Shown piece after piece: positions 5,757 to 31,941 of a stretch of DNA of 32,000 nucleotides. The notes below the pieces were generated by a model. That model searched no databases. It had not been told where the DNA came from and saw nothing but the letters and a program-made list of their open reading frames with translations. The DNA is from a bacterium (lineage in GTDB: Bacteria > Babelota > Babeliae > Babelales > RVW-14): NCBI GenBank assembly GCA_016699045.1, contig CP064957.1:33613-65612 (forward strand), in the 5' to 3' direction. A program made the translations under genes and the position numbers. Each line of letters begins with the position of its first letter. Positions within the stretch are counted from its first letter, which is position 1.

Positions 5757-6059
5757 TTATGAGTGCTTGATTTTGGCTTTTTTCTCGTTTGAGAGCCTTA
5801 TGAGCTCATCCCAATCCCGGGCAATTAAAGCTTCTTTTTTCCTTCTGGTCCAGCCTTTGATTTTTCGTTCCGCAGCAAGAGCTTCATCGCGCGTAACAAA
5901 GTCTTGTACAAAAACAACCTCGATTGGCAAGCGAGTGCTGGTATAACCTTTGGTTAGGCCAAAACGATGTTCGGAAATTCTTTTTTCAATATCATCTGTA
6001 TGGCCGGTGTAGTAAGATCCGTCGCTACATTTGAGGATGTAAACATAAAATGGAAGCAT
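5757..6059 (-). CDS. GIY-YIG nuclease family protein (small UPF0213-like)
   Basis: The sequence MLPFYVYILKCSDGSYYTGHTDDIEKRISEH...ERKIKGWTRRKKEALI carries the GIY-YIG signature (YVY...YTG...R...E). I place the start at ATG 6059, because the ORF-track extension to 6200 is translated repeat DNA. Confidence 0.85.
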   Translation of the reverse strand: MLPFYVYILKCSDGSYYTGHTDDIEKRISEHRFGLTKGYTSTRLPIEVVFVQDFVTRDEALAAERKIKGWTRRKKEALIARDWDELIRLSNEKKAKIKHS

Positions 6060-6115
6060 AGTATTTTTTTTATACCAATAAGATACGAATTTATTTTTCT
6101 TATTACTAATAGTAA

Positions 6116-6233
6116 CCGTTCGTCCTGAGCTTGTCGAAGGATTTGAACGGTTTCCTTTGTGCTTGGTGTGCGAGCATATTCGTCCTTTGTCCTTCGACAA
6201 GCTCAGGACATACGGACTCAGAGCGAATGGCGG
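6116..6233. repeat. Type A GC-rich palindromic repeat, inverted pair
   Basis: CCGTTCGTCCTGAGCTTGTCGAAGGATTTGAACGG (6116-6150) faces TCCTTCGACAAGCTCAGGACATACGG...CTCAGAGCGAATGG (6190-6233). The same 12-mer core, CGACAAGCTCAG, recurs at 17389, 17524 (rc), 23681, 24179 and 24290 (rc). Confidence 0.85.
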
Positions 6234-7917: not shown

Positions 7918-8000
7918 AATAAATACCTCCAAAAAAAATGAGAATAATAACCTCACAAATGAACTATAACCTCCAAAATGGCTCCATAACCATTTCCATC

Positions 8001-8293: not shown

Positions 8294-9130
8294 ATGAAAC
8301 AAAGTATTTTTTTGGTAGCTGGCCGCCTGGCAAGTAGGATCTTTTTTAGATTTTCTTGTGCTTTCATAATAGCTTTGCTCAGCTTTGCTCAGCTTTGCTC
8401 AGCTCAACAGCCACTCATCCCTCATGACCCCAATTTTTTGTCGTTGCCTAATAATGCGCGAACTGAGATCATTTCTCGCGAGCCTTTGATCATCTTGATC
8501 AATAATTTTATTACCGATGATGAGGCCAAAGCGCTCAAACAAGCAGCTCAACCTTTGCTCAAGAAATCGCTTGTTGTTGATGGTGAAAAGATTGATATTG
8601 AACATCCTGATAGAACATCAAGCTCGGCGTTTCTTACTATTGACTCATCCTCATCGCTTGCCTTGCCTATTACCAAGCGAGCAACTGATTTTCTGCGCAC
8701 TACGACAACACACGCCGAAGGGCTTCAAGTTGTCCACTACAAAAATCATCAGCGTTATGATACACATTTCGATTATTTTGATCGAACCCAGCCAAGCGGA
8801 CGAGCAGCAATTGGCGCCCGTGGTCAACGGGTTGCAACCGTTTTGGTTTACCTCAACGACGTGCAACCTGATTCTGGGGGTGAAACATTTTTCCCCAAAA
8901 TTGGCGAGGGGCTTAAGGTTCGGCCTCAAAAAAATATGGCTGTTTTTTGGTATAACGTTCTGCCCTCAGGGCTGGAAGATGGAAGAACGTTGCACGCTGG
9001 TCTTCCGATAACTGGCGGTGAAAAATATGCACTTAATATTTGGATTCGAGACCCTCGTCTTGTTAATCAGGTAAATGAAACCCCGACCTCGCTATTAGTG
9101 GCTGCAAACAACGAGCAAGCTGATAAATAA
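8294..9130 (+). CDS. Prolyl 4-hydroxylase-like 2OG-Fe(II) oxygenase with an N-terminal signal peptide
   Basis: Signal or TM segment FRFSCAFIIALLSFAQLCSA. Catalytic-type motifs are YKNHQRYDTHFDYF (H-x-D), GGETFFP, and RTLHAGLPITGGEKYALNIWIR (distal His plus a basic residue). Confidence 0.85.
   Translation: MKQSIFLVAGRLASRIFFRFSCAFIIALLSFAQLCSAQQPLIPHDPNFLSLPNNARTEIISREPLIILINNFITDDEAKALKQAAQPLLKKSLVVDGEKIDIEHPDRTSSSAFLTIDSSSSLALPITKRATDFLRTTTTHAEGLQVVHYKNHQRYDTHFDYFDRTQPSGRAAIGARGQRVATVLVYLNDVQPDSGGETFFPKIGEGLKVRPQKNMAVFWYNVLPSGLEDGRTLHAGLPITGGEKYALNIWIRDPRLVNQVNETPTSLLVAANNEQADK
8371..8404. repeat. Decanucleotide tandem repeat (AGCTTTGCTC x 3.4) in the signal-peptide coding region
   Basis: Perfect copies lie at 8371-8380, 8381-8390 and 8391-8400, followed by a partial AGCT. 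The unit length is not a multiple of 3. Confidence 0.9.
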
Positions 9131-10764: not shown

Positions 10765-12246
10765 TTAGAATGAAAAACCTGCTTTACCCCAAACGGCATA
10801 TTGTTCGACCGAGGAATTTTTAGGCGCAAATTCATAATAACCGCCAACGCCTATCGATGTTGGATAGCAGTCATTGATCTTGCATTTGTACGCAACACCT
10901 GCCGACAATTTATGAGTAATTTGTGATGGGGTTTTGGCGGCATCAACGTCAAGGTTGTCTGCAGTAAAGAATTCATCGCCAATCACAGCAAACCGATCAA
11001 CTGCGCTCTCTGAGTCTTGTCCTGGTTTAACAATACCAACTTGGCCGATCAAATCGTCAGTGTTTTTGACCCAGAGCGATTCTTGGTCTTTCCAGTACAA
11101 GTTGTAGCCAATTTCAACCACACAATGCTTGTTTTGGAATGAAAGGTTGAGTAATGCATCGATTTGGCTGTTTGGTTGGACGCGCATGTCGCGGGTCAAA
11201 ACGTTGGCAAGAGGGAAAAATGGCTTATTAACTTGGCCATTGCGAGCACCAAGGTAGTAGTGGCTCAATGGTTCTGAGTTGCCATCGGTAACGTTTTTAA
11301 GCCCGATGGTACGTGTTTCGGTGCCTTCAAACAAATATGAGTAGTTTAAGCAGCCGTCAACGCGTAATTTGCCTTGTTCGCCAGACCATACTTGTGCGCC
11401 GGCATAGATGTTGGCGCCAAGGCCTACATGGTGGCCGTTGCCATAAACTGGTTCAAAAAGATAGGTACCGCGTACTTTTGAGCCGGTTGGGATGGTAACA
11501 AATACTGAAACGAAAGCATGCGCTGTATCAGATTGGAAGTATTTGTAACCAAGTGCCAGGTCAAGGTCAGCAATTCCTGTTTTGCTACGGTCGCCGTCAA
11601 TTTTGCCAAAAGCAAGTGGGACTTGTTGGTTTAGCTCGCCAGTTGTTACGTTAACGTTACCAGCAAAAAAGTCTGCCAGGTCGTAGCTATCGTTGGTTTC
11701 GCTTTCAACAAGGACTTCATTGCCATCATTAATAGTCATTTCCATGTCGGTTTCAACATGAATGATGGGCATGCTTGCTTTGAAAAACAAGTTTTTGATT
11801 GGGGCATTGATATCTTGAATGTAGTCCAAACGGAAACCAAATACTTCGCGTTCTGGATTGAACGTAACATTGCCTCTAACAAATTGTGTGCTTTCGCCTC
11901 CGATGGCATGAATCAAATGGCTGCCGTCTATTTCAACACCATCTGTTGCTGGGTTGCCAACCGCAAAGCCGTTAGTGCCATTACCAAAACCAAAGTAAGC
12001 ACCAAGATCGTCATCGTTGGTCGATGCTTGCCAAAAACCAGTTATTTGAACGTGGCTGTTGATGCCATGCTTTTCTTTGTGTTGTTTGAAAAAGTGTGAA
12101 TGCCAAGTTGTCCATTCCATAGCGCTGTCAACGTTGGTTGGTCGTGGCATTAAAAATGTTTTACCTGAATATTGGCGGTCGTTGTCGGCATACAAGCTGC
12201 CGACGCACAATGCTAAAAGTGCGAGTATGCGAAGATGTATTTTCAT
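10765..12246 (-). CDS. Outer-membrane beta-barrel protein (porin-like), paralog 1
   Basis: Signal peptide MKIHLRILALLALCVGSLYA with a GGAGAAGGA ribosome-binding site. The C-terminus ends ...WGKAGFSF, with the terminal Phe typical of OMPs. Blocks shared with 18490..20037 and 21031..22602 include FL-x-PR, TGIADLDL, VTIPTG, GNGHH, LNYSYLFEGTE-RT-GLK and TPSQ. Confidence 0.8.
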   Translation of the reverse strand: MKIHLRILALLALCVGSLYADNDRQYSGKTFLMPRPTNVDSAMEWTTWHSHFFKQHKEKHGINSHVQITGFWQASTNDDDLGAYFGFGNGTNGFAVGNPATDGVEIDGSHLIHAIGGESTQFVRGNVTFNPEREVFGFRLDYIQDINAPIKNLFFKASMPIIHVETDMEMTINDGNEVLVESETNDSYDLADFFAGNVNVTTGELNQQVPLAFGKIDGDRSKTGIADLDLALGYKYFQSDTAHAFVSVFVTIPTGSKVRGTYLFEPVYGNGHHVGLGANIYAGAQVWSGEQGKLRVDGCLNYSYLFEGTETRTIGLKNVTDGNSEPLSHYYLGARNGQVNKPFFPLANVLTRDMRVQPNSQIDALLNLSFQNKHCVVEIGYNLYWKDQESLWVKNTDDLIGQVGIVKPGQDSESAVDRFAVIGDEFFTADNLDVDAAKTPSQITHKLSAGVAYKCKINDCYPTSIGVGGYYEFAPKNSSVEQYAVWGKAGFSF

Positions 12247-12628: not shown

Positions 12629-12934
12629 ATGGAAATTATGAATTATCAAGATATAGAGCCATACCGAAAAGATCTTATAAAAATTATCTTCCACTATTTC
12701 CCATCGTGCCAAATATATCTTTTTGGATCACGAGCAACGCAAACTAATAACCCACATTCAGATATTGATTTGGCGATTGATTGTGGCCGCGTGGTGCCAT
12801 TGCACGATCTTTCTGCTTTGATTGAGGCCATTGACGGACTTAATATTCCGTTTTACGTTGATATTGTTGATGTACGTAATACATCGCCGGTAATGGTTGA
12901 GCAAATTAATAAATGTGGGATTTTATGGAAATAA
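12629..12934 (+). CDS. Minimal nucleotidyltransferase (MNT, HI0073-like antitoxin component), pair 1
   Basis: The sequence IYLFGSRATQTNNPHSDIDLAID carries the G-S...D-x-D polymerase-beta-fold NTase motif, and VDIVDV supplies the third acidic residue. About 100 aa, overlapping the partner gene. Confidence 0.85.
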   Translation: MEIMNYQDIEPYRKDLIKIIFHYFPSCQIYLFGSRATQTNNPHSDIDLAIDCGRVVPLHDLSALIEAIDGLNIPFYVDIVDVRNTSPVMVEQINKCGILWK

Positions 12935-13362
12935 TGACAGGAATTGAAAAATTAATTATTAAACAAACAACAACCTTACAAGCGTTGGCAAGACTTAAAG
13001 AAGAATTAGAAACTTTAAGTAAGCTTGATAATAGTTCATCTGGTGATCAAAAATTAATACGTACCTATCGTAATTCTGTAACCAAACTTTTTGAAATTTC
13101 ATTCGATCTCTTTTGGAAATATGTTAAAGAATACCTTTGGGGCATGCACGGCATTGATCAACAATCTCCCAAAAATGTATTTCGCGAATGTTTTAAGCTT
13201 GACTTTGTCAGTCAGGCAGAAACAACTCAGCTCTTAACGATGGTTGATGAACGCAATAAGTTGGTTCATACCTACAATGAAGAAGTGGCAATTCTTATCT
13301 CGTACAACATTCCTCAGTATTATAACTTGATGAATCAGTTGCTTGATGCTATGAAAGTTTAA
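12934..13362 (+). CDS. HI0074-like NTase substrate-binding / HEPN-type protein (putative toxin component), pair 1
   Basis: R-x4-H motif in DERNKLVHTY, and homology to 20498..20926. ATG 12934 overlaps the upstream TAA as TAATG; in-frame upstream ATGs at 12913 and 12925 are alternative starts. Confidence 0.8.
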   Translation: MTGIEKLIIKQTTTLQALARLKEELETLSKLDNSSSGDQKLIRTYRNSVTKLFEISFDLFWKYVKEYLWGMHGIDQQSPKNVFRECFKLDFVSQAETTQLLTMVDERNKLVHTYNEEVAILISYNIPQYYNLMNQLLDAMKV

Positions 13363-14095: not shown

Positions 14096-14315
14096 CTTTT
14101 TTGGCAACAACTCCGTAGGCCTTTTTATGATTTGTCCTTGTAAATTGTCATTTCAATTTAAAAATTACAAGGATGGTGGGCAGTTGGAGTTTGTTGTTGA
14201 TGCAGTTAAAGCCTCTTTGGGACGTGTTTTTAAGCAGGGTTGTGTAATTATGTAAGTCGGGTTATAGTTTTACACAGGTAGCTTTAAGATGGTCTCTGGT
14301 GCTGAAAGGAAAAGT

Positions 14316-15488
14316 ATGTTTATCGAAAGAACCTTGAAGCCGGTGTTGCTTCACTACGCCTCAAAATTTGCTGTTGTTGCCGTTGTTGGTCCGCGGCAGT
14401 CTGGAAAAACGACGTTAACCAAAGAGGTGTTTGCCAATTATCGTTACTTCTCTTTGGAAGATCCCGATACGCTAGAAGCGGTGCGTAGCGATCCGCGCGG
14501 TTTTTTGGAACGTGATTATGGCACGCCTGGCATGATTATCGACGAATTTCAAAATGAACCGACTTTGTTGTCGTACATGCAAGGCATTGTGGACAGTAAC
14601 TATCGGCCTGGTTATTTTATTTTGACCGGTTCCCAAAACTTTTTGATGAACGAAGCGATTACGCAATCGTTGGCCGGTCGCGTTGCGTTACTCACGCTTT
14701 TACCCTTAACAGCTAACGAATTGCAGCAAAGTGCTTTGTTGCCAGAGCAGGTTGATGTCGCCATTTTTAATGGTGGCTATCCAAATATCTTTTCGCGTGG
14801 CATGAGTCCGAGTGAATTTTATCCGCAGTATACAAAAACGTATGTTGAGCGCGATGTTCGGCAGTTAGTGAATGTTGCAAAGCTGAGTGAGTTTCAACGC
14901 TTTATGCGGCTGTGCGCTGGCCGCATCGGGCAAATTTTTAATGCTTCGTCCTTGGCTGATGATTGCAATGTGAGTGTGCCAACAATCAATTCCTGGGTTT
15001 CAATTCTTGAAGCTAGCTATGTTTTATTTTTATTGCAGCCGCATTTTAAAAATTTTAGCAAGCGTCTCATTAAGTCGCCCAAACTTTATTTTTACGATAC
15101 CGGGCTTGCATGCTGGCTGTTAAAAATTGGTTCAGTTGAGCAGTTGCATGATCATTATTTGCGTGGCGGATTAATGGAATCGTTTGTGGTGGCAGAATTG
15201 TATAAAACATTTTACAACAAAGGCCTTGAGCCAACGGTTTATTTTTGGCGTGATAGCCATGGCCATGAAGTTGATTGTTTATTAGATTATGGTGTTGATC
15301 TGGTACCGATTGAGATTAAATCTGGGGCAACGGTTAATCAACGGTTTTTTGATAATCTTACATTTTGGCACACGCTTGCCGGCACTGATCGGTCGCAGGG
15401 CTATGTTGTTTATGCTGGTACTGAAAAGCATGAGCGCAGTTTCGGGACGGTAGTGAGTTGGCAGGATGTTAGTAGTATGGTGCGATAG
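14316..15488 (+). CDS. AAA ATPase with a DUF4143-type C-terminal domain
   Basis: Walker A motif GPRQSGKTTL, Walker B-like MIIDEFQ, and a C-terminal restriction-endonuclease-like block FWRDSHGHEVDCLL...IEIKSG. I place the start at ATG 14316 (MFIERTLK), after AAAGGAAAAG. Confidence 0.85.
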   Translation: MFIERTLKPVLLHYASKFAVVAVVGPRQSGKTTLTKEVFANYRYFSLEDPDTLEAVRSDPRGFLERDYGTPGMIIDEFQNEPTLLSYMQGIVDSNYRPGYFILTGSQNFLMNEAITQSLAGRVALLTLLPLTANELQQSALLPEQVDVAIFNGGYPNIFSRGMSPSEFYPQYTKTYVERDVRQLVNVAKLSEFQRFMRLCAGRIGQIFNASSLADDCNVSVPTINSWVSILEASYVLFLLQPHFKNFSKRLIKSPKLYFYDTGLACWLLKIGSVEQLHDHYLRGGLMESFVVAELYKTFYNKGLEPTVYFWRDSHGHEVDCLLDYGVDLVPIEIKSGATVNQRFFDNLTFWHTLAGTDRSQGYVVYAGTEKHERSFGTVVSWQDVSSMVR

Positions 15489-17644: not shown

Positions 17645-18055
17645 TTACTTTTCGAAAAGAGGTAAGTTATTTTTCGGCAAAGCCGTAACTTTTTTTTCAA
17701 CAAAATTTAAAATCTTGTTGGCCATGCTAATTGCTTGTTTAATGTCTTCTTGATCTACAAAAAAACGGTCGTCAGGATAGCGCGAATAAACGCCATACGG
17801 ATTTAAAAAAAGTGCTTCGTTTTCAAGGGTTTTAAACGATGAATCTGCTTGAGCACATTCTTCTAAAATTTTTTCGAGATCATGACTTTTTAAAACAGGT
17901 TTTTTGCAAAAAACTAAATATGTTTTGAGTGCTTTTTCGGCACATTGATGTGCAAGATAAACAGTAACGTCTCCTACCTCTTCATTGCTCGATGACATTT
18001 TTGCAACTATTAAATCGTTTGAGGCTTTTCTCAGCCAGTCTTTAATTCCTGGCAT
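17645..18055 (-). CDS. HEPN domain protein (putative toxin of an MNT-HEPN pair), pair 2
   Basis: The sequence reads ...AHQCAEKALKTYL...KSHDLEKIL...YSRYPDD, which is classical HEPN-domain-like. Its ATG overlaps the upstream NTase gene by 14 nt. Confidence 0.75.
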   Translation of the reverse strand: MPGIKDWLRKASNDLIVAKMSSSNEEVGDVTVYLAHQCAEKALKTYLVFCKKPVLKSHDLEKILEECAQADSSFKTLENEALFLNPYGVYSRYPDDRFFVDQEDIKQAISMANKILNFVEKKVTALPKNNLPLFEK

Positions 18056-18362
18056 AAATTACCTTCCCTTTATTTTTAACTTGGTAAGGCAGCGTTGTGT
18101 AGTCAGACGTTCGTGCATCAAATTCTTCTTGCGTGTATACCAATAAATCTTTAGATATACTTAAACCCCATAATGCCTTCATACCGGCAAACGCTCGATG
18201 TTGCGGGCGTTCATTTGAAGATTCTACAATTACCAATAAATCTAAATCGCTATCGTCGTGAGGGGTGCCCCACGCATAAGAACCAAAAAGATAAATAGTT
18301 GTAGGTTGGTAAACAGCAACCAGTCTGTTTTTTACTTCTTCAATAACTTCTGGGCTAATCAT
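18042..18362 (-). CDS. Nucleotidyltransferase domain protein (MNT antitoxin component), pair 2
   Basis: IYLFGSYAWGTPHDDSDLDLLVIV carries the G-S...D-x-D motif. I place the start at ATG 18362 (MISPEVIEEV), because the ORF-track extension to 18518 runs through the terminator repeat. Confidence 0.82.
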   Translation of the reverse strand: MISPEVIEEVKNRLVAVYQPTTIYLFGSYAWGTPHDDSDLDLLVIVESSNERPQHRAFAGMKALWGLSISKDLLVYTQEEFDARTSDYTTLPYQVKNKGKVIYARN

Positions 18363-18434
18363 GGTTTTATCCTTTTCTGGCGCTTTAAAGACGTTTTTGT
18401 CAGTGTAAATAAAATGGTACGAATTGGCAAATAA

Positions 18435-18467
18435 CAAAAAAGCCGATCTGGATGACCGGCTTTTTTT
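18435..18467 (-). terminator. Rho-independent terminator of the 18490..20037 gene, second copy of the 67-nt repeat
   Basis: On the - strand, AGCCGGTC-atccagat-CGGCT is followed by TTTTTTGTT. Confidence 0.7.
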
Positions 18468-18489
18468 AAACGAGAGAGCGTGAATTTTT

Positions 18490-20037
18490 TTAGAATGCAA
18501 GACCAGCTTTGCCACCAATTTCCCAGTTGCTCAGTGCTGCATTGTCTGAAGCCCATTCATAATGCGTGTGGAAGCCAACCAAAAGTGGTACTTGGAACGT
18601 TTGCGATTGATATGAAACGCCGGCATAAATTTTGTTGCTCAATTGCGATGGCGTTTCTGCAGTTTGGGTGGTGATGTTGCTATCGACAAGTGGCACTTGC
18701 AGTTCACCAACAGAAATTCCTGAGCCGCTTGCGGTAGCACTTGGCGTTACAATGCCCCATTTGTTTGCGGTTGTACCAAAAATTGGTGTATTTTTTTTGC
18801 GATCAACATCTTCTTGATCGCGGTAGTACAGGTTGTAGCCAAGATCGATAGTAAAACCGCGGTTGTGGTAGGCAAAAGCAAGAATCATGTCGAGCTGGCT
18901 GCCGGGAGTGACATCGCAATCAACCGTCAATTTATTAGCGGCAGGAATCAAAATTGTGGCTGCGCCAGTAACTTGACCAACAAGTGCATAATGGCCCCAA
19001 GGAATTATGCTGCCATCGGTATTTTTTAAACCGAGCGTTCTTTGTTCAGTGCTTTGAAATAGATAGCGATAGTTTAGGGCGCCGTGAAATGAGAAGTTGT
19101 GTTGGTTGTGTTGCCACATGATGGCGCCGCCATCAAGGCCGGCACCAAAACCCCAGTGAGTGCCATTGCCAACGATTGCTTGAAAAAGTTTTTCGCTTTT
19201 TACATCATCGCCAGTTGGGATAGTAACGCCCACGTTGACGGCCAAGCGATAGTTTTCGTGGTACAAGCAGTAGTAACCAAGCATGAATTCGATGTCGGCG
19301 ATGCCGCTTGAACTATCATCGTTATTCGTTTTACCAAATTTTAAAAACTGCAGAGCAGCTTGCGCATTGGTAGCGTCGTTGTTGGCGCCGGTGCCATCAA
19401 AATAATTTTTCAAAGCGTTGGTAACTGATGTTGCAACAACGGCAGCTGTGCCAATGTTGATGGTTGCCGCATTGTACACTTCGGTAAAGTTGGCATTAAT
19501 ATTATTTTCAACATTAACAATTGGTACGTTGAGTGAGAAATAAAGACCATTCAGCGCTTTGTCTAAATTTTGGTGATGATTGAGCGTGATGCCGTACGCA
19601 CGTTGTTGTGGGTTGAGGGAAAGTTGTACAAGCTCGGTTGGTGTGCCGCTGGCAATGCCTGCGGAGTAGTGTACAAAGTGGCGGTAGTTTAAGGTTTGTG
19701 CGGTAACCGGGGCGTTGCCGCTATTTGAGCCAAAGTTGAAATTATTTTCTTTAAGTTGGTTTGTTGGTGGGTTGGTTGCTGGTGCAAAATATTCGCCCGC
19801 CTCATCTTTGTCTGTTGATGCCTGATAATAACCAATTACTTGCAAGCAACCGTTGTAACCCTTGTTTGTGCCTTCTCGATGCATTAAGTTTTGCCAGCCG
19901 TTTACATTTTCAAGCGCCAAATTAACGCCGTGTGATCGTGGATTTAAAAATGTTTTATTGTGCGCATCGTCTGCGTGCACGTGCGCTATGGCTGCCAGTG
20001 CGGCGATGATAAGACTTTTTTGTATGACGTTCTTCAT
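18490..20037 (-). CDS. Outer-membrane beta-barrel protein (porin-like), paralog 2
   Basis: Signal peptide MKNVIQKSLIIAALAAIAHVHA with a GGAGAG ribosome-binding site. The C-terminus is ...GGKAGLAF. It is strongly similar to 21031..22602 along its whole length. Confidence 0.82.
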   Translation of the reverse strand: MKNVIQKSLIIAALAAIAHVHADDAHNKTFLNPRSHGVNLALENVNGWQNLMHREGTNKGYNGCLQVIGYYQASTDKDEAGEYFAPATNPPTNQLKENNFNFGSNSGNAPVTAQTLNYRHFVHYSAGIASGTPTELVQLSLNPQQRAYGITLNHHQNLDKALNGLYFSLNVPIVNVENNINANFTEVYNAATINIGTAAVVATSVTNALKNYFDGTGANNDATNAQAALQFLKFGKTNNDDSSSGIADIEFMLGYYCLYHENYRLAVNVGVTIPTGDDVKSEKLFQAIVGNGTHWGFGAGLDGGAIMWQHNQHNFSFHGALNYRYLFQSTEQRTLGLKNTDGSIIPWGHYALVGQVTGAATILIPAANKLTVDCDVTPGSQLDMILAFAYHNRGFTIDLGYNLYYRDQEDVDRKKNTPIFGTTANKWGIVTPSATASGSGISVGELQVPLVDSNITTQTAETPSQLSNKIYAGVSYQSQTFQVPLLVGFHTHYEWASDNAALSNWEIGGKAGLAF

Positions 20038-20213: not shown

Positions 20214-20516
20214 ATGAAAGAATTAGATATAAAAACAAAAGAAAAGATAATAAATATTGTGCATGCGCTTATCGCTGATGCTGATATTTATTTGTTTGGT
20301 TCGCGAGCAACTGGGCAGCACCATGCCCACTCAGATATTGACCTTGCACTCGATGCTGGAAAAAAATTGGATCGGTTGGTAGTTGGCGAGGTTAAAGATT
20401 TACTGAGCGCTTCAAATATTCCCTATAAATTTGATGTTGTTGATGTGCATAATGTTGGCGATGATTTAAAAAGAGATATTATGAAAGAGGGTGTTTTATG
20501 GGCAAAGAGAAAGTAA
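20214..20516 (+). CDS. Minimal nucleotidyltransferase (HI0073-like), pair 3
   Basis: IYLFGSRATGQHHAHSDIDLALD plus FDVVDV, a clear paralog of 12629..12934. Confidence 0.85.
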   Translation: MKELDIKTKEKIINIVHALIADADIYLFGSRATGQHHAHSDIDLALDAGKKLDRLVVGEVKDLLSASNIPYKFDVVDVHNVGDDLKRDIMKEGVLWAKRK

Positions 20517-20926
20517 CTAAAAAAATAGATCATTTTGAAAAAGCTTTAAAAACATTGAACACGGTTCTGGTAAGATTTGAAGAAGTGACGCCAGATTACA
20601 AAGATTATCTTTTTATTCGCGATTCACTTATTCAGCGCTTTGAATATTGTACTGATATGTTTTGGAAAGTTCTTCGTGAGTTTATTATAGAAAAGCATGG
20701 CGTTGATGTGCTGGCAAGTCCCAAGGCTGTTCTTAAAGAAGCATTTGATGTGTATTTGATTGATGAAAAGCAATATACGCAGTTATTGACATCCGTTAAT
20801 GATCGGAATTTAACGTCGCATGCGTATCAAGAAGATGTTGCATTGCAGATTGTTGAATATGTTGCTGATTCTTACCAGCTCATGAAAATAATTATCGAAA
20901 AGATAAATCAAGAAATAAATCTTTAG
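20498..20926 (+). CDS. HI0074-like NTase substrate-binding / HEPN-type protein, pair 3
   Basis: R-x4-H motif in NDRNLTSHAY, plus SLIQRFEYCTDMFWKVL. It overlaps the upstream gene by 19 nt. Confidence 0.82.
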   Translation: MGKEKVTKKIDHFEKALKTLNTVLVRFEEVTPDYKDYLFIRDSLIQRFEYCTDMFWKVLREFIIEKHGVDVLASPKAVLKEAFDVYLIDEKQYTQLLTSVNDRNLTSHAYQEDVALQIVEYVADSYQLMKIIIEKINQEINL

Positions 20927-21030: not shown

Positions 21031-22602
21031 TTAGAACGCAACGCCAGCCTTCGCGCCAATACCCCAGTTGCTAATACCGGTATTGTCTGAAGCCCATTCA
21101 TAATGTCCGTTAAGACCTACAAACAATGGCACATCCCAGCCGTAGGTTGCGTAAGCAACGCCAGCATAGATTTTGTGTGTGAGTTGTGATGGTGTTTCTG
21201 CATTGTCGGTGGTAACGTTCTTTGAGTCAACAAGAGTAAGTCCGTTAACAAAGGAGGAACCGTTATTTGCTATACCAACAGAAGTATTTACATCTGGATT
21301 TACAATACCCCATGAGTTAGGACCAGCTGTAAGTTCACCAAAAATGGCTGTTGAACCTTTGCGATCAACATCTTCTTCTTCACGGAAGAACATGTTGTAA
21401 CCAAGGTCGAACGTGAAGCCACAGTAGTGGTACGCAAAAGCAACGATCATATCAAGTTGGCTGCCTGGTGTAACGTCGCAATCAACGGTCAACATGTTTG
21501 CAGCTGGAACCAAGGTTACAGCGCCGCCAGTAGCGTTTGATTTGCCAACAAGTGCATAATGGCCCCAAGGAATGATGTTTCCTGCAGCGTCTTTCAAGCC
21601 AAGAGTTCTCTTTTCTGTGCCTTCAAACAAATAGCGATAGTTCAATGCTGAGTGGAAGGTCAAGCTGTGATCGCCATCGTGCCACATTGTTGCGCCGCCG
21701 TCAAAGCCTGCACCAAGTGCCCAATGATCGCCGTTACCAACAAGAGCTTCGAAAAGCTTTTTGCATTCTGCATCATCGCCGGTTGGGATGGTGAAGCCCA
21801 TGTTCACTGCCAAACGGTATTTGTTTTTGTACAAGAAGTAATAACCAAGAATGAAGTCGATGTCTGCAACGCCTGTTGAGCTGTCTTCATTGTTTTTAGC
21901 ACCAAACTTCAAGAATTGAAGAGCTGCTTGTGAGTTGTTTGCTGCATTATTTGAGAAAGTACCGTCGAAGTAACCTTTTAATGCATCAAGAGCTGAAGGT
22001 TGTGGAGCAAGGAGTGGATTACCAACTTCACCAAGAGCTGCCACTGGAACCGCGCCAGCTGCATATTCTGGATCAATGCTGTTTTCAACGTTTACAATTG
22101 GCACATTGATCTTGAAGTAAAGACCTTTAAGTATTTTGTCTAAATCTTGATGATAGTTCAAGGTAACGCCGTAAGCACGTTGTTCTGGGTTGAGGCTGAG
22201 TTTGACTGTTTCGCCAACTGCAATATCTGTTCGTTGATGTACGAAATTACGGAAGTTCAAAGTTTGTGTCACGGCGGTGTTGCCAGCAGCTGATCCAAAG
22301 TTGAAGTCGTTGTCTTTGAGTGGGTTATCTACTGGGTTAGTTGCTGGAGCAAAATATTCGCCCAATTCTTCTTCATCAGTTGAAGCCATGTAATAACCAA
22401 TCACTTGAAAGTTACCGCCAAATGTATCGTCGGCACCTTTGCGGTGAATCAGTTTTTGCCAGCCGTTCACGTTTTCAAGCGCAAGGTTTACGCCGTGTGA
22501 ACGAGGGTTTAAAAATGTTTGGTTGTGTGCGTCGTCGGCTTGTACGTTTGACATGACTGCCAAAGCAGTAAGCAAAAGACTATTTCTTATTACTTTATTC
22601 AT
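21031..22602 (-). CDS. Outer-membrane beta-barrel protein (porin-like), paralog 3
   Basis: I place the start at ATG 22602 (MNKVIRNSLLLTALAVMSNVQA), with GGAG 9 nt upstream. The ORF-track start at 22617 is a GTG. The C-terminus is ...GAKAGVAF. Confidence 0.82.
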   Translation of the reverse strand: MNKVIRNSLLLTALAVMSNVQADDAHNQTFLNPRSHGVNLALENVNGWQKLIHRKGADDTFGGNFQVIGYYMASTDEEELGEYFAPATNPVDNPLKDNDFNFGSAAGNTAVTQTLNFRNFVHQRTDIAVGETVKLSLNPEQRAYGVTLNYHQDLDKILKGLYFKINVPIVNVENSIDPEYAAGAVPVAALGEVGNPLLAPQPSALDALKGYFDGTFSNNAANNSQAALQFLKFGAKNNEDSSTGVADIDFILGYYFLYKNKYRLAVNMGFTIPTGDDAECKKLFEALVGNGDHWALGAGFDGGATMWHDGDHSLTFHSALNYRYLFEGTEKRTLGLKDAAGNIIPWGHYALVGKSNATGGAVTLVPAANMLTVDCDVTPGSQLDMIVAFAYHYCGFTFDLGYNMFFREEEDVDRKGSTAIFGELTAGPNSWGIVNPDVNTSVGIANNGSSFVNGLTLVDSKNVTTDNAETPSQLTHKIYAGVAYATYGWDVPLFVGLNGHYEWASDNTGISNWGIGAKAGVAF

Positions 22603-23136
22603 ACTTATCTTCTCCACAAATTTATTAGTTTAACATGGTAACGTTTGTTTTGTTGAACAAGAACGTTTGCGTGAATGTGCTTGGTAGAAGCGATTGATGC
22701 CGTTGGCAAAAAAACGTCCATCAATAACATTTTTTTTTAGGGCTTCCTCCTTTCTTCATTGACTACCTTTTGAGATCTTTCTACCTACTCAAATCACGTA
22801 AAAACAGTAGCGTGTTGCGTGTGTTTAACGTGTGCGTATTGACTTAGAGTTGGTGATTTGCTTGACTGGTGCTGTATCTTTATGCGGCACCAATTTTACC
22901 CCTCAACAATCTCATGTTGATAGACTAACGATCCTCAACTAATATATCAAGTATTTTTTCACAGAAAGCTTGAATAGGCCTGCTGATCGATAAAATGGAG
23001 GTTAATTTTTTCTGTTTTTTTAATTTCAAACGTACACAGTTTTGAAAAAAATATCAGATGAGCCGATAAAGTATTAGAATGTTTTTGGTTATGATGTGAA
23101 TATAAAATTTTTTAAAATTTTTTTATCAAAGAGGGA

Positions 23137-24837
23137 ATGATGAGTAATTTTTTGTCTTGGGTCGTCTGTGTGCAAATTATTGGTGAGTCGTTGCCAATTA
23201 GTAGCTCTTCGCACGTGCGCTTGCTTATGATGCTTGTGTCATTGGTTGGTGGGGCAGCTTTTTTTGGACAACCAATCCCTGATTTTTTGGATCATTTTTT
23301 GCATGGCTCAATGGTCTTGATTATTATATTTTTTTTTCGACACGTGTGGGTGCCGATCTTTTGGCGACTTGTTGATGTGGTGCGTGCGTATGCGTTTCGC
23401 GTGCGTGTGCGCGATAGCCAGCGGGCGTTGGCTTGTGTGTGCCTGTGGCTGATTTTTTATGTTGGTTGTGCGAGTGTGATTACCGCACTTTTTTATAGTG
23501 TGATTAAAGTTATTTTGAAGTACAATGCGGTGCTGGCGCATGAAGCTACCATGCTTGTTGGTTTGTGTGTGACAGCAGGTTTGCTGTGGTCTTTGCGGTA
23601 TGTGGACCTTTGTCCTTCAATCTTTCAGTCTTCGCTAAAGCTTCGCCGGACTTCGTCGACAAACTGCTCCTTCGATCCTTCGACAAGCTCAGGACGTACG
23701 GAGCTCAGGGCGAACGGGCTTCAGGATAAGTGTGACGGGTGTAAAAAGTCTTGTAACGTAGAGAAAAATATTCACGCTCTCTCCGTTCGCCCTGCTTGTC
23801 CGTCGAAGCTTGTAGAGCGTAGTCGGGAGCTTGCCACGCCCTTTAAAGCCACGAAGGGCGAAGAATGGGTCGAAGGGTCTTGTGTTTCTAAAAAAAATGC
23901 AGCTCAGAGCGATCTTAGTAAGTGTGAATATGCTTCTCGTTGTTCCAAGGCCTGTTCTCAAAACCTGAGGGACAAAGAACAGGACAATTTTGAGACGAGC
24001 AAAAGAACCTTATGTTTTAATGAAAAGCGCAGAATAGAATTGAATCAGCGACAAGCGCAAGGTGAACGGACTGATTGCGTATGTGATTCTTGTGATTATG
24101 TGTCTCATTGCAAAAAAAAGGTATGTCCGTGCTTGCCTGTTGAAGAGTCTGGGGTTGCTGAGAAAAATGAAGACCCTTCGACAAGCTCAGGGTGTACGGG
24201 GCTCAGGGTGTGTGGGTCTTTGAATAAGCAAGAAAAGCGTAATGGGGAGTCTTTTTGTTCTTTGGCTTTCAATAACAAATCCGTATGCCCTGAGCTTGTC
24301 GAAGGGTCTGCCTGCTCTGCGTGCCCGTCGAAGTGTCAACGAAGTCGGGATCTTGTCTATTCGACACAGTCTGTCGACTTGTCCGGCGAAGCTTTAGCGA
24401 AGTCGGAAGGGTTGAGGGGCGAAGATCAAAGAGCGAAGACGGAAGAAAAAAAACTCACAAGTTTTAAAATCTACGCCATTCTCGGTCTGGTTCAAGGCCT
24501 CGCACTGCTGCCCGGCATCTCGCGTTTTGCCAGCACGTACGTTGCTGCTCGTTGGCTTGGCTTTTCAACACGACGCGCTTTTCAGGTGTGCTTTTTGCTC
24601 GAGCTACCAATTGTGCTTGCAGCGTTTTTAGTGCTGGGTGTTGGCGGGGCGTGCAGGCAGCATGGCTGGGCAGTGGTTGGTGAACCGAGCGTCATGCTCA
24701 CCATAGTTGGTGCAACGGTTGTTGGTTATGGAGCTCTTTGGGCAGCCTGGTGGTTGGCAGAGCGGCGCTTATTGTGGCTGTTTTCAGTATATCTACTGCT
24801 GCCCATCTTGACTGTGCTATACTTAATTTTTCAATAA
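23137..24837 (+). CDS. uppP: Undecaprenyl-diphosphate phosphatase (UppP/BacA) with a repeat-derived in-frame insertion of about 277 aa
   Basis: The N-terminal box is IIGESLPISSSSHVRLL (compare E-x-x-x-E-x-LP-x-SS-x-x-H of BacA). The C-terminal box is LPGISRFASTYVAARWLG (compare PG-x-SRSG) and is followed by TM helices. The recognisable halves (about 163 and 127 aa) add up to a normal UppP length. Confidence 0.85.
   Translation: MMSNFLSWVVCVQIIGESLPISSSSHVRLLMMLVSLVGGAAFFGQPIPDFLDHFLHGSMVLIIIFFFRHVWVPIFWRLVDVVRAYAFRVRVRDSQRALACVCLWLIFYVGCASVITALFYSVIKVILKYNAVLAHEATMLVGLCVTAGLLWSLRYVDLCPSIFQSSLKLRRTSSTNCSFDPSTSSGRTELRANGLQDKCDGCKKSCNVEKNIHALSVRPACPSKLVERSRELATPFKATKGEEWVEGSCVSKKNAAQSDLSKCEYASRCSKACSQNLRDKEQDNFETSKRTLCFNEKRRIELNQRQAQGERTDCVCDSCDYVSHCKKKVCPCLPVEESGVAEKNEDPSTSSGCTGLRVCGSLNKQEKRNGESFCSLAFNNKSVCPELVEGSACSACPSKCQRSRDLVYSTQSVDLSGEALAKSEGLRGEDQRAKTEEKKLTSFKIYAILGLVQGLALLPGISRFASTYVAARWLGFSTRRAFQVCFLLELPIVLAAFLVLGVGGACRQHGWAVVGEPSVMLTIVGATVVGYGALWAAWWLAERRLLWLFSVYLLLPILTVLYLIFQ
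23623..24453. repeat. Nest of type A and type B palindromic repeats inside uppP, bounded by inverted type B copies
   Basis: The core CGACAAGCTCAG occurs at 23681 and 24179, and reverse-complemented at 24290. Type B hairpins lie at 23795-23828, 24322-24349 and 24381-24407. CTTCGCTAAAGCTTCGCCGGAC (23629-23651) is the inverse of the copy at 24381-24407. Confidence 0.85.
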
Positions 24838-24853: not shown

Positions 24854-25147
24854 ATGATTGAAGAGCAGTACAAAGATCGGCTTGTTGCCATCATTTCAAA
24901 ACACCTGCCGGGGTGTTCAATTTATATGTATGGTCCGTGGGCTCAAAGTCAGGGTTGCTTGCCGATGCCGATTGGTGTGGCGCTTGATGATCGTGCACAA
25001 GAAATTGATATCGCGGTACTTGGCACTATTTTAGACGACCTTCATGAATCAACTATTCCGTATTGTGTTGAGCTTGCCGATATGAATGATGAGTATGATG
25101 ACATTGTGAAAGAAGTAAAAAAGGGTTTTGTGGTATGGAAACAATAG
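24854..25147 (+). CDS. Degenerate MNT-like protein with NTase catalytic motif lost, pair 4
   Basis: It aligns with 20214..20516, but IYLFGSRATGQHHAHSDIDLALD has become IYMYGPWAQSQGCLPMPIGVALD (GS to GP, DID to PIG). AGGAG ribosome-binding site 16 nt after the uppP stop. Confidence 0.75.
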   Translation: MIEEQYKDRLVAIISKHLPGCSIYMYGPWAQSQGCLPMPIGVALDDRAQEIDIAVLGTILDDLHESTIPYCVELADMNDEYDDIVKEVKKGFVVWKQ

Positions 25148-25578
25148 CATGTCGGCACCAGCAACGGTTGCATGAAAAACTTAAAGCGTTGGAAGAGGTT
25201 TTGTATGATATCAATCATGTAAGCGAATGGTGCGATGAACAGGACCAGGTAAGAGCTACCAAGCTTGCACACATGATGCACGATTCTTTAACCAAGCGCT
25301 TTGAATATTGTGTTGATGAGTTAAGTAACTATTTAGCAGCGCGCGTCCAAAAACCAGGGGCAATGAGTCGCGCAAAAAATATGCGCGATGTGGTTCGGTT
25401 GGCCGTACATGCAGGCGTTTTAACACCTCAACTTGGGGAGCAAGCGCTCGTGATGCTTTCGATAAAGAATAGTATTAGCCAGCTTGAACGTGCTGACCGA
25501 GAACCGTTTGTTCAAGATGTTAGCAACTATTGCAATTTGATGAAAACTATTGTTGAAAAACACGATCTGCAAAAATAA
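25135..25578 (+). CDS. Degenerate HI0074/HEPN-like protein with R-x4-H motif lost, pair 4
   Basis: SLTKRFEYCVDEL aligns with SLIQRFEYCTDMF of pair 3. The motif position NDRNLTSH reads SIKNSISQ (R to K, H to Q). It overlaps the upstream gene by 13 nt. Confidence 0.72.
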   Translation: METIACRHQQRLHEKLKALEEVLYDINHVSEWCDEQDQVRATKLAHMMHDSLTKRFEYCVDELSNYLAARVQKPGAMSRAKNMRDVVRLAVHAGVLTPQLGEQALVMLSIKNSISQLERADREPFVQDVSNYCNLMKTIVEKHDLQK

Positions 25579-30114: not shown

Positions 30115-30143
30115 TTGTCATTTTTTAAGCTTCTTGCTATAAT
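30115..30143 (+). promoter_or_regulatory. Strong sigma70-type promoter (TTGTCA-17-TGcTATAAT) for the 30189..31166 gene
   Basis: A 5/6 match at the -35 (30115-30120), a 17-nt spacer, an extended -10 TG, and a perfect TATAAT at 30138-30143, 45 nt before the start codon. Confidence 0.6.
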
Positions 30144-30188
30144 GTAATATTATTATTGCAGGAGTAATTTTATTACTTTAGAGGTTGT

Positions 30189-31166
30189 ATGGTAGTTAAA
30201 AAAATGCTGTTTTATATGGTTTTTGCGTTGCTGAGTGCTCAAGCAACTGATGCAATGGTTGGTGAGCCACCAGCAAAGCGCCGACGCATTGATCCAGAAG
30301 CAAGCTCTTTTTGCTCATCTCAAGCGATTGATTTGACCAAAGAGGGTGACATTATTGAATATCAGTGTTTACAACAAAATAAACCTAATGCTAAAAGTTT
30401 TAATAAAAATAAACGTGTTCCTCACGCGCTTTATTGTGGTTATTATGCACTATTTTTTGCGCGTGCTTTTATTGAAGAAACTGCGGAGTTATTGCCTGAG
30501 GTTGTTAATGATCTTGGACGCTTGCGTGCTACTATTAAACCGTGGGAAAAACATTTAAAATATAAAAGTAATTTAAGAACCGATGATTTTGACGGAACAT
30601 GTGACGATACGGAAAGTGGTTTGCTTAATAAGTTTAAGCTTAATGAGGGCATTATTGTTATTGATTCTCTTGATGTACTTGAAGGATGGTTGCGAGGCCG
30701 TGGTCAGTATTTAACGCGTGAAATAATTGATCAGCGTAAGCGATTTGAGTCTGGCGAAAAAGTTGCGTTTGTAGTTAACACCGGCGGGCATTGGGTTGCT
30801 TTTGGCGTACGAGCCGTTGATGGTATGTTCAATATTTTTCGATTTGATTCGTTAAAAAATCTTGATTTAAATCAAGAGCGTGCAGGGCGTTGGTTGTGTC
30901 TCTTTCTTGAAAAATTTACCAGCGAACAGTTAGCAGATATGCTGCTGGTTGGCAGTCGTTTAGCATATATTGCTAATCATTCTGAAAATGTAAGAGCGGA
31001 TTTGCGTACTTATTTTAATGCCATTCAATCAAAGCGGCCAATGTCTCATGAGCGTTTTATTGAGCTTGTAGAGCCTTATGGCTTTGCTCGGGATGTTCTT
31101 TCGACGTTGTTTGAATTAGAGAAAGTAGCGCCGGCAAGTTCGTTCAACTTTTGTGGAATTTTATAA
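30189..31166 (+). CDS. Secreted candidate effector: NLS-like motif plus a papain-fold Cys/His/Asp peptidase-like domain, possibly a Josephin-like deubiquitinase
   Basis: Signal peptide MLFYMVFALLSAQATDA, then PPAKRRRIDP. A candidate nucleophile sits in PHALYCGYYALFFA (C83), followed by NTGGHWVAFGVRAVDGMFNIFRFDSL (H201, N215/D220). This resembles the Josephin block EHWFTVRKLGKQWFNLNSL. Confidence 0.45.
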   Translation: MVVKKMLFYMVFALLSAQATDAMVGEPPAKRRRIDPEASSFCSSQAIDLTKEGDIIEYQCLQQNKPNAKSFNKNKRVPHALYCGYYALFFARAFIEETAELLPEVVNDLGRLRATIKPWEKHLKYKSNLRTDDFDGTCDDTESGLLNKFKLNEGIIVIDSLDVLEGWLRGRGQYLTREIIDQRKRFESGEKVAFVVNTGGHWVAFGVRAVDGMFNIFRFDSLKNLDLNQERAGRWLCLFLEKFTSEQLADMLLVGSRLAYIANHSENVRADLRTYFNAIQSKRPMSHERFIELVEPYGFARDVLSTLFELEKVAPASSFNFCGIL

Positions 31167-31247
31167 TTGTACAAAAAACTTATGAGTTAAGTAATTTGAA
31201 CTAAATAAGTACGGTGTATTAATAAAATTTTTTTAGATTCTTAGAAA

Positions 31248-31278
31248 AGCGTCATCAGAACATGGTGGCGCTTTTTTT
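31248..31278 (+). terminator. Rho-independent terminator of the 30189..31166 gene
   Basis: AGCGTCATC...GGTGGCGCT forms a 9-bp stem including two G-U pairs, followed by TTTTTTT. Confidence 0.65.
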
Positions 31279-31407: not shown

Positions 31408-31941
31408 ATGCAAAATAATTTGCCAGATCTATGGTCAAATGAAAATCTTCGTAATGTTATGTTAAAGTTGCCGCATAAAATATTACACAATCGAGAAGTG
31501 TCTGGTCTTGCTCAAATTATTTTACATGAGCTTGGGCCCCATTTAGGTTTTAAGCGCGCAATGTATCTCATCGACAACCCAGATTTTTCCTGCCTAAAAG
31601 GAGTTGCTGGCTTTTGTCAAAATGAGTGTAAGTATCATCAACAAGATTTGTGGCAAAATCCGCATGCGTTTGGTGTTGATATGGAGCAGGCTGCTTTTCA
31701 TGATCAAATTCAAAAATTTTATCACGATAATGTTGTTCGCAAAGATGGTACCTGCTGTCCTGAAGCGCTTGCTGAGTTGGGAAAAAAAGTTGGCCTTACC
31801 AATCCTCACGTTTTTACGTGGCCAATGCGGCATGATAATACGGGTATTTTATTGTATGATCCTGAGGAAGCGGGTGTTTGTAAAAATCATCCAGAAGTAC
31901 TTGATCATGCAAGTGCCTTGTTAGGCTTGTGCTCGGTTTAA
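31408..31941 (+). CDS. Hypothetical Cys/His-rich protein, possibly GAF-like fold
   Basis: A 177-aa ORF with AAGGGAGAGAG upstream. I recognised no confident motif. Scattered Cys and His residues include CLKGVAGFCQNECKYH, GTCCPE and GVCKNH. Confidence 0.55.
   Translation: MQNNLPDLWSNENLRNVMLKLPHKILHNREVSGLAQIILHELGPHLGFKRAMYLIDNPDFSCLKGVAGFCQNECKYHQQDLWQNPHAFGVDMEQAAFHDQIQKFYHDNVVRKDGTCCPEALAELGKKVGLTNPHVFTWPMRHDNTGILLYDPEEAGVCKNHPEVLDHASALLGLCSV

Follow-up and report, generated by a model that had tools for sequence, protein, structure and literature searches.

A leader-bearing Babeliales protein as a candidate ubiquitin or ubiquitin-like protease with a CE-like core in apparently permuted order

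A 32,000-nucleotide stretch of the genome of a Babeliales bacterium (assembly GCA_016699045.1, contig CP064957.1, positions 33,613 to 65,612 of the forward strand), called the window below, contains an open reading frame (ORF) at 30189-31166 on the plus strand that we refer to as gene X; its 325-residue product, protein X, provides the residue numbers used here. We consider it somewhat better than an even bet (probability about 0.55) that protein X is a Sec-exported cysteine protease of the deubiquitinase (DUB) or ubiquitin-like protease (ULP) type, used as an effector by a Babeliales parasite against its protist host, and built on a permuted core resembling that of clan CE. Gene X had been singled out from the letters alone as a possible eukaryote-targeting effector with a Josephin-like peptidase signature (the original prediction), and the ORF was present exactly as described there. 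Bacterial effectors that act as proteases on ubiquitin or ubiquitin-like modifiers (Ubls) are a well-known functional class, and permuted DUB folds have precedent.

A word-indexed search returned three close proteins, namely the window's own copy (100% identity, P0001), one of 92% identity (P0002) and one of 66%. When 1.84 billion cluster representatives were scanned exhaustively with HMMER, no more than five clusters were recovered (P0003-P0007); with tandem paralogues added from the contigs, the family comes to about nine sequences. Residues C83, G84, Y86, A87, A91, W119, N197, H201 and W202 were invariant across the relatives, and D220, within an [FYA]-D-S motif, was present in all members, P0006 requiring a one-residue shift. 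In protein X, C83 lies in HALYCGYYALFFA, H201 in NTGGHWVAF and D220 in FRFDSL; exactly 118 residues separate C83 from H201, as had been estimated, and 19 separate H201 from D220. The order of Cys, then His, then Asp that had been assigned from the single sequence was borne out by this conservation. C83 had also been called the only candidate nucleophile, which holds in so far as no other Cys is invariant, but the protein has five more (C42, C60, C138, C237 and C322). C237, downstream of the His block, is not conserved: P0004-P0007 have Arg, some other residue or a gap at its position. A CE-clan triad in native order (H201-D220-C237) was therefore ruled out, and the assignment of C83, H201 and D220 stands.

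An AlphaFold2 (AF2) model built from seven sequences reached a predicted local distance difference test (pLDDT) score of 80-91 in the core and a predicted template modelling score of 0.63; an earlier run with three sequences was unusable (pLDDT 35). The model places C83 at the N-terminus of helix 83-96, H201 at the start of strand 202-210 and D220 at the end of strand 213-220, with H201 and D220 on one beta-hairpin. As modelled, this is the canonical papain-type layout. An aromatic residue directly after the catalytic His (H-[FYW]) is the "gatekeeper" of DUBs and Ubl proteases of clans CA and CE; it contacts Gly75 of ubiquitin and limits substrates to Gly-Gly tails, in Cys-first and His-first families (PMC7391069). 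Such a pair, H201-W202, was found invariant in all relatives. In the mechanism that we propose, Cys83 at the helix N-terminus would be the nucleophile, its thiolate activated by His201 and Asp220; His201, at the start of its strand, would act as general base, and Asp220 on the next strand would orient it. Trp202 would be the aromatic gatekeeper, admitting only Gly at P2 and with it the Gly-Gly tails of ubiquitin, NEDD8 and SUMO. This predicted chemistry is the same in all protease readings discussed below.

In native order, all Pfam matches of protein X fell on residues ~160-230, the His/Asp block: Peptidase_C48 (PF02902, E 0.012), ElaD/SseL (PF22102, E 0.059) and Josephin (PF02099, E 0.093). 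In NCBIfam, the ElaD/SseL DUB model was matched at E 0.0078. Among seven family members, Josephin was matched by five (best E 6.2e-5), ElaD/SseL by four (best E 6.5e-4) and C48 by three. The Josephin match covered only profile positions 69-129 in protein X (13.0 bits) and only 99-148 in the best member, P0004 (23.3 bits), against a cut-off of 26 bits. Thus the residue order, the HW pair and a family-level similarity to PF02099 remain of the predicted Josephin signature, but membership is sub-threshold and restricted to the His/Asp half, and the HMMER check proposed for protein X itself came out below the cut-off. The further suggestion of a YopT-type peptidase was not supported, since none of the seven members matched C58 at E<=10. 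At the same threshold there was no Pfam match to the YopJ family (C55), NlpC/P60, CHAP, amidase or other papain families, and we ruled out NlpC/P60, CHAP and the other papain families on that ground.

When the family profile was compared with PDB sequences, it matched the ULP/DUB domain of Wolbachia CidB (7FIU, E 0.0076) and SseL (E 0.074), and no Josephin. A Foldseek search of the AF2 model against the PDB, which had been suggested as a check, was led by enzymes of clan CE, although none reached E<=0.001: seven of the first 12 entries were CidB (probability 0.91), Lem17, AvrA, SseL, the deSUMOylase 5LNB, SENP8 and PopP2. With this seven-sequence model no Josephin appeared in the top 50, though ataxin-3, ATXN3L and JOSD2 (1YZB, 3O65, 6PGV) are in the library. 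Nothing significant was found among viral structures, where S273R of ASFV, a CE-clan protease, came up at E 0.12. The bacterial Josephins SnJOS, BpJOS, PaJOS and PcJOS were not listed in the PDB profile search (E<=10) or by Foldseek, and their own sequences were not compared.

The CE-clan DUB/ULPs, which serve as bacterial effectors, were thus the best neighbours of protein X by sequence profile and by Foldseek. SseL/ElaD (C79, PF22102), CidB and Ulp1/SENP (C48) share with it the beta-hairpin block N-x-G-x-H-W ... [FY]-D-S-L, NTGDHW of SseL being almost identical to NTGGHW of protein X, as well as a helix after the Asp, a C-G-aromatic motif opening the catalytic helix and the aromatic gatekeeper after the His. 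His201 aligns to the catalytic His of CidB, SseL, SENP1 and ataxin-3, and Asp220 to Asp550 of SENP1 and Asn134 of ataxin-3. At the family level the resemblance to Josephin around the His exceeds chance, and the block resembles CE-clan families at least equally well. Judged from these alignments, the His/Asp hairpin is generically "DUB/ULP-like", common to Josephin and clan CE.

In a non-significant HMMER sub-alignment, the N-terminal CGyYAL of the family fell on the C-terminal catalytic NCGIWAYENA of CidB, which suggested circular permutation. We therefore swapped the two halves, so that the His/Asp half came first and the Cys half second (for protein X, [153-244]+[59-152]). Against the Pfam C48 hidden Markov model (HMM), the score of protein X rose from 15.9 bits in native order to 21.3 bits after permutation (cut-off 20.7); the permuted alignment extended over profile positions 77-187 and took in both the His block and the catalytic Cys, whereas the native one covered the His block only. 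Permutation also raised P0004 from no match to 18.1 bits, P0007 from no match to 13.0 and P0003 from 14.6 to 16.7. As controls, the His half alone scored 13.1 bits, and the C48 match was lost when the Cys half was reversed or shuffled. Grafting the Cys half of ataxin-3 gave 13.9 bits with no extension, and permuted ataxin-3 had no C48 match.

The nine-sequence family alignment was also compared by hhalign (Table 1) with a C48 profile of four sequences (SENP1, SENP2, Ulp1 and SENP8, each recognized as C48 by Pfam at 45-167 bits) and with a profile made from 22 ataxin-3 orthologues to represent Josephin. Permutation brought H201, D220 and C83 into register with H533, D550 and C603 of SENP1, respectively. 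When the columns of the Cys half were shuffled 200 times as an empirical null, the score was 28.5 ± 1.2, and 1 of the 200 shuffles reached 38.3; we do not accept the nominal P for the permuted family against C48, as this null gives ~0.01. The Josephin and C48 profiles were mutually unrelated, so that similarity to Josephin does not account for the CE signal. By these comparisons the Cys module appears to resemble only the CE module, and the most economical reading is a circularly permuted core of CE type in which the Cys comes first. The CE module "Q..CG-helix" would then precede, not follow, the beta-hairpin module "N-x-G-x-HW ... DS-L", giving an order that is Josephin-like only superficially.

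Table 1. Scores of hhalign comparisons of the family alignment and its halves with the C48 and Josephin profiles
Query	Template	Score	P
Family, native	C48	28.4	1.7e-3
Family, permuted	C48	38.3 (probability 70%)	4e-5 (nominal)
Family, permuted, Cys half reversed	C48	28.3	1.7e-3
Family, permuted, Cys half shuffled	C48	28.2	1.8e-3
His half alone	C48	27.4	7.5e-4
Cys half alone (on SENP1 catalytic-Cys region)	C48	21.8	0.008
Family, native	Josephin	22.5	0.012
His half alone	Josephin	21.4	6.6e-3
Cys half alone (wrong region)	Josephin	18.0	0.031
Josephin, native or permuted	C48	12.8	0.42

The locus and its evolution would fit a role at the host interface. All of the about nine relatives lie within one Babeliales (Dependentiae) clade, mostly adjacent to murF. 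A word-indexed search with the domain profile returned only P0003, a scan of metagenome contigs only the organism of contig L084, and searching the window gave no other copy of it. Neither Pfam nor NCBIfam has a model of the family, its structure has not been solved, and it is not mentioned in the bacterial DUB literature that was searched. The genes 5' of gene X are ftsK and murF; MurF of the window is 88% identical to that of a "Candidatus Babeliales" metagenome-assembled genome (MAG), and the next best matches are TM6/Dependentiae MAGs. The slot ftsK-murF-[X]-(X2)-177aa-heparinase-like-aaRS is common to three genomes, with one X copy in the window and two in each of the others. Between the window and the sister genome, protein X is 42% identical and the flanking proteins 80-88%. 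The ratio of nonsynonymous to synonymous substitution rates (dN/dS) of X was 0.25 against the 92% orthologue, which shows that gene X is functional and under purifying selection, and 0.44 against the sister genome; for the flanking murF, ftsK and 177-aa gene it was 0.06-0.11, about fourfold lower than for X. Depending on the relative, the putative catalytic Cys is found as early as residue 50 or as late as residue 469, and the linkers are highly variable and partly Ser-rich. P0007 (contig L085, 5546-7801) is a 751-aa fusion of a leader, a calcineurin-like metallophosphatase (PF00149, E 8.8e-20) and the Cys/His/Asp domain, an arrangement that suggests a bifunctional secreted enzyme. Fast divergence, copy-number turnover and variable linkers together are the pattern expected of a host-interface gene.

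The hydrophobic leader that had been noticed in protein X is present (MVVKKMLFYMVFALLSAQATDA, maximal Kyte-Doolittle 11-mer 2.25) and is kept in 9/9 family members, with a recurrent A/M or A/Q junction. Babeliales are obligate intracellular parasites of protists. Of the proteins of Chromulinavorax, a relative in culture, 44% carry Sec signal peptides, and ORFans and proteins that may manipulate the host are over-represented among them (PMC6561590). The leader of protein X fits this general export route of the lineage, by which the protein would reach the periplasm; delivery beyond it, to the host cytosol, is presumed here.

Several points weigh against an exported, permuted CE-like protease. 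No database match of native protein X was significant, every Pfam and NCBIfam score, including those of the CE-clan families, falling below its curated cut-off, and the best Pfam E-value of any family member is the Josephin match of P0004. Clan CE (Ulp1/SENP, SseL/ElaD, adenain and YopJ) has by definition the order His-Asp/Glu/Asn-(Gln)-Cys, whereas protein X has its Cys first; it also lacks the CE oxyanion Gln six residues before the Cys. The stretch ending in C83 reads K-R-V-P-H-A-L-Y-C, so that neither -5 nor -6 is Gln or Asn; a conserved His stands at -4 and a QQN motif ~20 residues upstream of C83. Permutation gains +8 to +10 bits, a modest signal with an empirical p of ~0.01 whose hhalign part depends on a C48 profile of only four sequences, and in permuted constructs the match to the ElaD-SseL HMM stopped short of the Cys. 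With a native query and a tandem-duplicated C48 template, hhalign kept the His-block path only (28.5) and did not bridge the junction, because the N-terminal 80 columns of SENP, with their helices, have no counterpart in the family; correspondingly, no equivalent was detectable in protein X for the substrate-tunnel helices ("WLND") at the N-terminus of Ulp/SENP. Foldseek returned 0 matches at E<=0.001, the leading entries having E values of at least 0.065, TM scores of ~0.2 and partial alignments, and the juxtaposition of Cys, His and Asp is presumed. Finally, a Sec leader alone delivers only to the periplasm, and CE-clan folds include acetyltransferases of the YopJ type.

A permuted core is nevertheless plausible, because clan CE is already considered a permuted version of the papain fold (PMC7391069) and because permuted DUBs are active. 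EschOTU is a circularly permuted bacterial OTU DUB, and the engineered vOTU^P shows that permutation is compatible with folding and DUB activity (PMC7396840). EschOTU and protein X, as we read it from its sequence, would both be bacterial DUB-type papain folds whose catalytic modules are reversed relative to the rest of the family. EschOTU is the mirror case, a Cys-first (CA) family turned His-first, whereas X is a His-first (CE-like) family apparently turned Cys-first; the two have no sequence relationship, and the acid follows the His by 2 residues in EschOTU and by 19 in X. More tentatively, and at odds clearly below even, protein X may be the founding member of an undescribed class of Ub/Ubl-specific cysteine proteases in which the CE-clan core was permuted a second time, back to Cys-before-His, a class confined to the Babeliales clade, exported by a Sec leader against protist hosts and mirroring EschOTU. 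Since the N-terminal "WLND" module of Ulp/SENP is missing, such a class could have a new substrate-binding surface and an unusual specificity or cleavage mode.

Among the alternatives, a highly divergent true Josephin-type DUB (MEROPS C86) survives best; it is unlikely, but live. Protein X would then be co-linear with ataxin-3, with C83, H201 and D220 corresponding to C14, H119 and N134, and might be related to the bacterial Josephin DUBs or "clippases" of Simkania, Burkholderia and Parachlamydia. Both families have the order Cys, His, Asp/Asn with similar spacing (118 + 19 residues here, 105 + 15 in ataxin-3), the Cys at a helix N-terminus, Trp after the His, the motifs N-x-x-x-HW and N/D-S-L, and a helix behind them. 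The co-linear hhalign alignment pairs Cys with Cys, His with His and Asp with Asn, and lays the helix LCLFLEKF on LALFLAQL; to this come the PF02099 matches of five members. However, each of those is below the cut-off and covers the His/Asp half only. The Cys half adds nothing to the Josephin score (22.5 versus 21.4), alone aligns to the wrong region of the profile, and a shuffled control moved a Josephin score by +2.3 bits, so that differences of this size are noise. Protein X has no Gln five residues before the Cys, nor any counterpart of the Josephin Q-x-x-x-x-C block and Cys helix (LCAQHCLNNLLQ), and its third triad residue is Asp where Josephin has Asn. The PDB profile search returned CE enzymes rather than Josephins, the Foldseek top 50 held none of the Josephins of the library, and the Josephin and C48 profiles are unrelated. 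Bacterial Josephin-like DUBs and ubiquitin C-terminal clippases (SnJOS1/2, BpJOS and PcJOS) are known effectors and a precedent in intracellular bacteria; the study describing them neither found nor mentions the X family and includes no Dependentiae (bioRxiv 10.1101/2024.07.24.604956).

Two further readings are less likely than a divergent Josephin. A periplasmic or envelope papain-like hydrolase with a bacterial substrate, for example a cell-wall peptidase and no host effector, is improbable. Its conserved position near murF, ftsK and uppP would then reflect a role in the cell envelope; gene X lies directly downstream of murF in three genomes, its Sec leader predicts only periplasmic export, and leaders on 44% of Babeliales proteins make a leader weak evidence for an effector. 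Yet gene X is served by a promoter and a terminator of its own, the NlpC/P60, CHAP and amidase families were not matched at E<=10, Gly-Gly-specific proteases typically have a His-Trp gatekeeper like the invariant one here, and fast divergence, copy-number change, variable Ser-rich linkers and a phosphatase fusion are atypical of housekeeping envelope enzymes. Least likely, and quite improbable, is a CE-like acetyltransferase of the YopJ/AvrA/PopP2 type that would acetylate host proteins with the same Cys/His/acid triad: some CE-clan members with an HW motif are acetyltransferases, lpg1949 among them (PMC7391069), and Foldseek listed the YopJ-family structures Lem17, AvrA and PopP2 (E 0.09-0.3), but with low probabilities (0.1-0.47), while C55 was not matched at E<=10, the closest sequence matches are the DUB/ULP members CidB, SseL/ElaD and Ulp1, and NTGGHW with FDS is near-identical to NTGDHW of SseL with the YDS block of Ulp.

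If the permuted CE-like protease is confirmed, protein X would enlarge the set of bacterial proteases directed at ubiquitin or Ubls by a new sequence family that Pfam, NCBIfam and the PDB lack, and would offer a natural CE-type catalytic core in Cys-first order that bears on how clans CA and CE are related by circular permutation. It would also be the first concrete candidate for an effector mechanism in Dependentiae/Babeliales, widespread and almost unstudied protist parasites whose huge "secretome" consists largely of ORFans. Small divergent DUBs/ULPs with odd substrate-binding modules are useful as tools, clippases being an example. These prospects are bounded by a tiny family (~9 sequences), an uncultured organism and evidence from sequences and models.

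The layout of gene X is given in Table 2. The promoter and terminator named in the original prediction were both found, so that the gene is independently transcribed as well as leader-bearing, in an obligate intracellular lineage. No shuffle of 200 reached the stability of the terminator hairpin, which a simple scan had missed. The AGAGG favours the start at 30189 over the ATG at 30204 of the database protein P0001. The core (aa 55-243) carries the Pfam, PDB and hhalign similarity to the His/Asp blocks of clan CE and Josephin. Within the linker, PPAKRRRIDP occupies aa 27-36 (KRRR codons 30276-30287). This motif had been proposed as a nuclear localization signal; it exists, but KRRR is confined to protein X and its 92% relative P0002, the 66% homologue having PPIEWPHIE instead, and we ruled it out as a conserved family feature. 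Runs of [KR]{4} occur in 4 of the 25 long ORFs of the window. Nuclear targeting by KRRR is possible for this allele, not as a feature of the family. The C-terminal extension contains a partly conserved helical motif of ~25 aa, S-x-E-x-F-[IL]-x-L...G...D-[VL]-L-x-x-L-F-E, possibly a small binding module; P0005 has it twice, and P0006 and P0007 have it too.

Table 2. Features of gene X and toxin-antitoxin-type genes, in window coordinates
Feature	Position	Strand	Remark
Sigma-70-type promoter TTGTCA-17 nt-TGcTATAAT, extended -10 TG	30115..30143	+	11/12 consensus match; 45 nt 5' of start codon
Shine-Dalgarno-like AGAGG	30180..30184	+	read from sequence; ends 4 nt 5' of ATG
Coding sequence of protein X, stop codon included	30189..31166	+	325 aa
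N-terminal Sec-type leader, aa 1-22, MVVKK-LFYMVFALLSAQ-ATDA/M	30189..30254	+	hydrophobic; predicted
Variable linker, probably disordered, aa 23-54	30255..30350	+	pLDDT <50; length and sequence vary among relatives
Predicted catalytic papain-fold-like core, aa 55-243	30351..30917	+	region conserved in HMMER matches; AF2 pLDDT 80-91
Cys83 codon, predicted nucleophile, motif hCGyYAL at start of helix 83-96	30435..30437	+	invariant 9/9; aligns to SENP1 Cys603 when permuted (hhalign, Pfam C48)
His201-Trp202 codons, predicted general base and aromatic gatekeeper	30789..30794	+	invariant; invariant Asn197 upstream
Asp220 codon, predicted third triad residue, [FYA]DS motif	30846..30848	+	retained in all members
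C-terminal helical extension, aa 244-325	30918..31163	+	low-confidence helices (AF2); optional in family, absent from P0004
Intrinsic terminator, 15-bp hairpin and U-run	31243..31278	+	free energy -19.1 kcal/mol, z -5.3
HEPN/NTase-type gene	12913-13362	+	
HEPN/NTase-type gene	17645-18055	-	
HEPN/NTase-type gene	18042-18518	-	
HEPN/NTase-type gene	20498-20926	+	
HEPN/NTase-type gene	25135-25578	+	

Directly downstream of gene X, three genomes encode a Cys/His-rich protein of 177-182 aa (window 31408-31941, plus strand; contig L083 of the sister genome, 11059-11592; contig L084, 10042-10590), with identities of 84% and 43%, a dN/dS of 0.06, no leader and no Pfam or NCBIfam match. An AAA_14/DUF4143 ATPase gene lies between ftsK and murF in the sister genome (L083 4790-6139, minus strand) and ~12 kb away in the window (14289-15488, plus strand), which suggests that it is mobile or rearranged. 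Of the 566-aa ORF at 23137-24837 (plus strand), only aa ~433-554 match the undecaprenyl-diphosphatase BacA/UppP, and BacA of the sister genome has 351 aa; the ORF is either over-extended upstream or a fusion.

Other leader-bearing products are encoded elsewhere in the window. Three paralogous ORFans of ~500 aa (10765-12246, 18490-20037 and 21031-22617, all on the minus strand) share 30-62% identity, have no Pfam match and are interleaved with toxin-antitoxin-like modules; they may be an expanding family of surface or secreted proteins. Two more ORFans with leaders (4646-5599 and 6490-7956, minus strand) show N-/C-terminal similarity of 37-40% and no Pfam match, and a stand-alone GIY-YIG nuclease-domain protein (5757-6200, minus strand) is found among the ORFans. 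Toxin-antitoxin-type genes of the HEPN, MNT and "NTase substrate-binding" (HepT-like) kinds are unusually dense for a reduced genome of 1.45 Mb, and include an overlapping HEPN+NTase pair at 17645-18518. A 2OG-Fe(II) oxygenase with a leader (PF13640, prolyl-hydroxylase-type superfamily; 8294-9130, plus strand) is possibly another host-directed enzyme.

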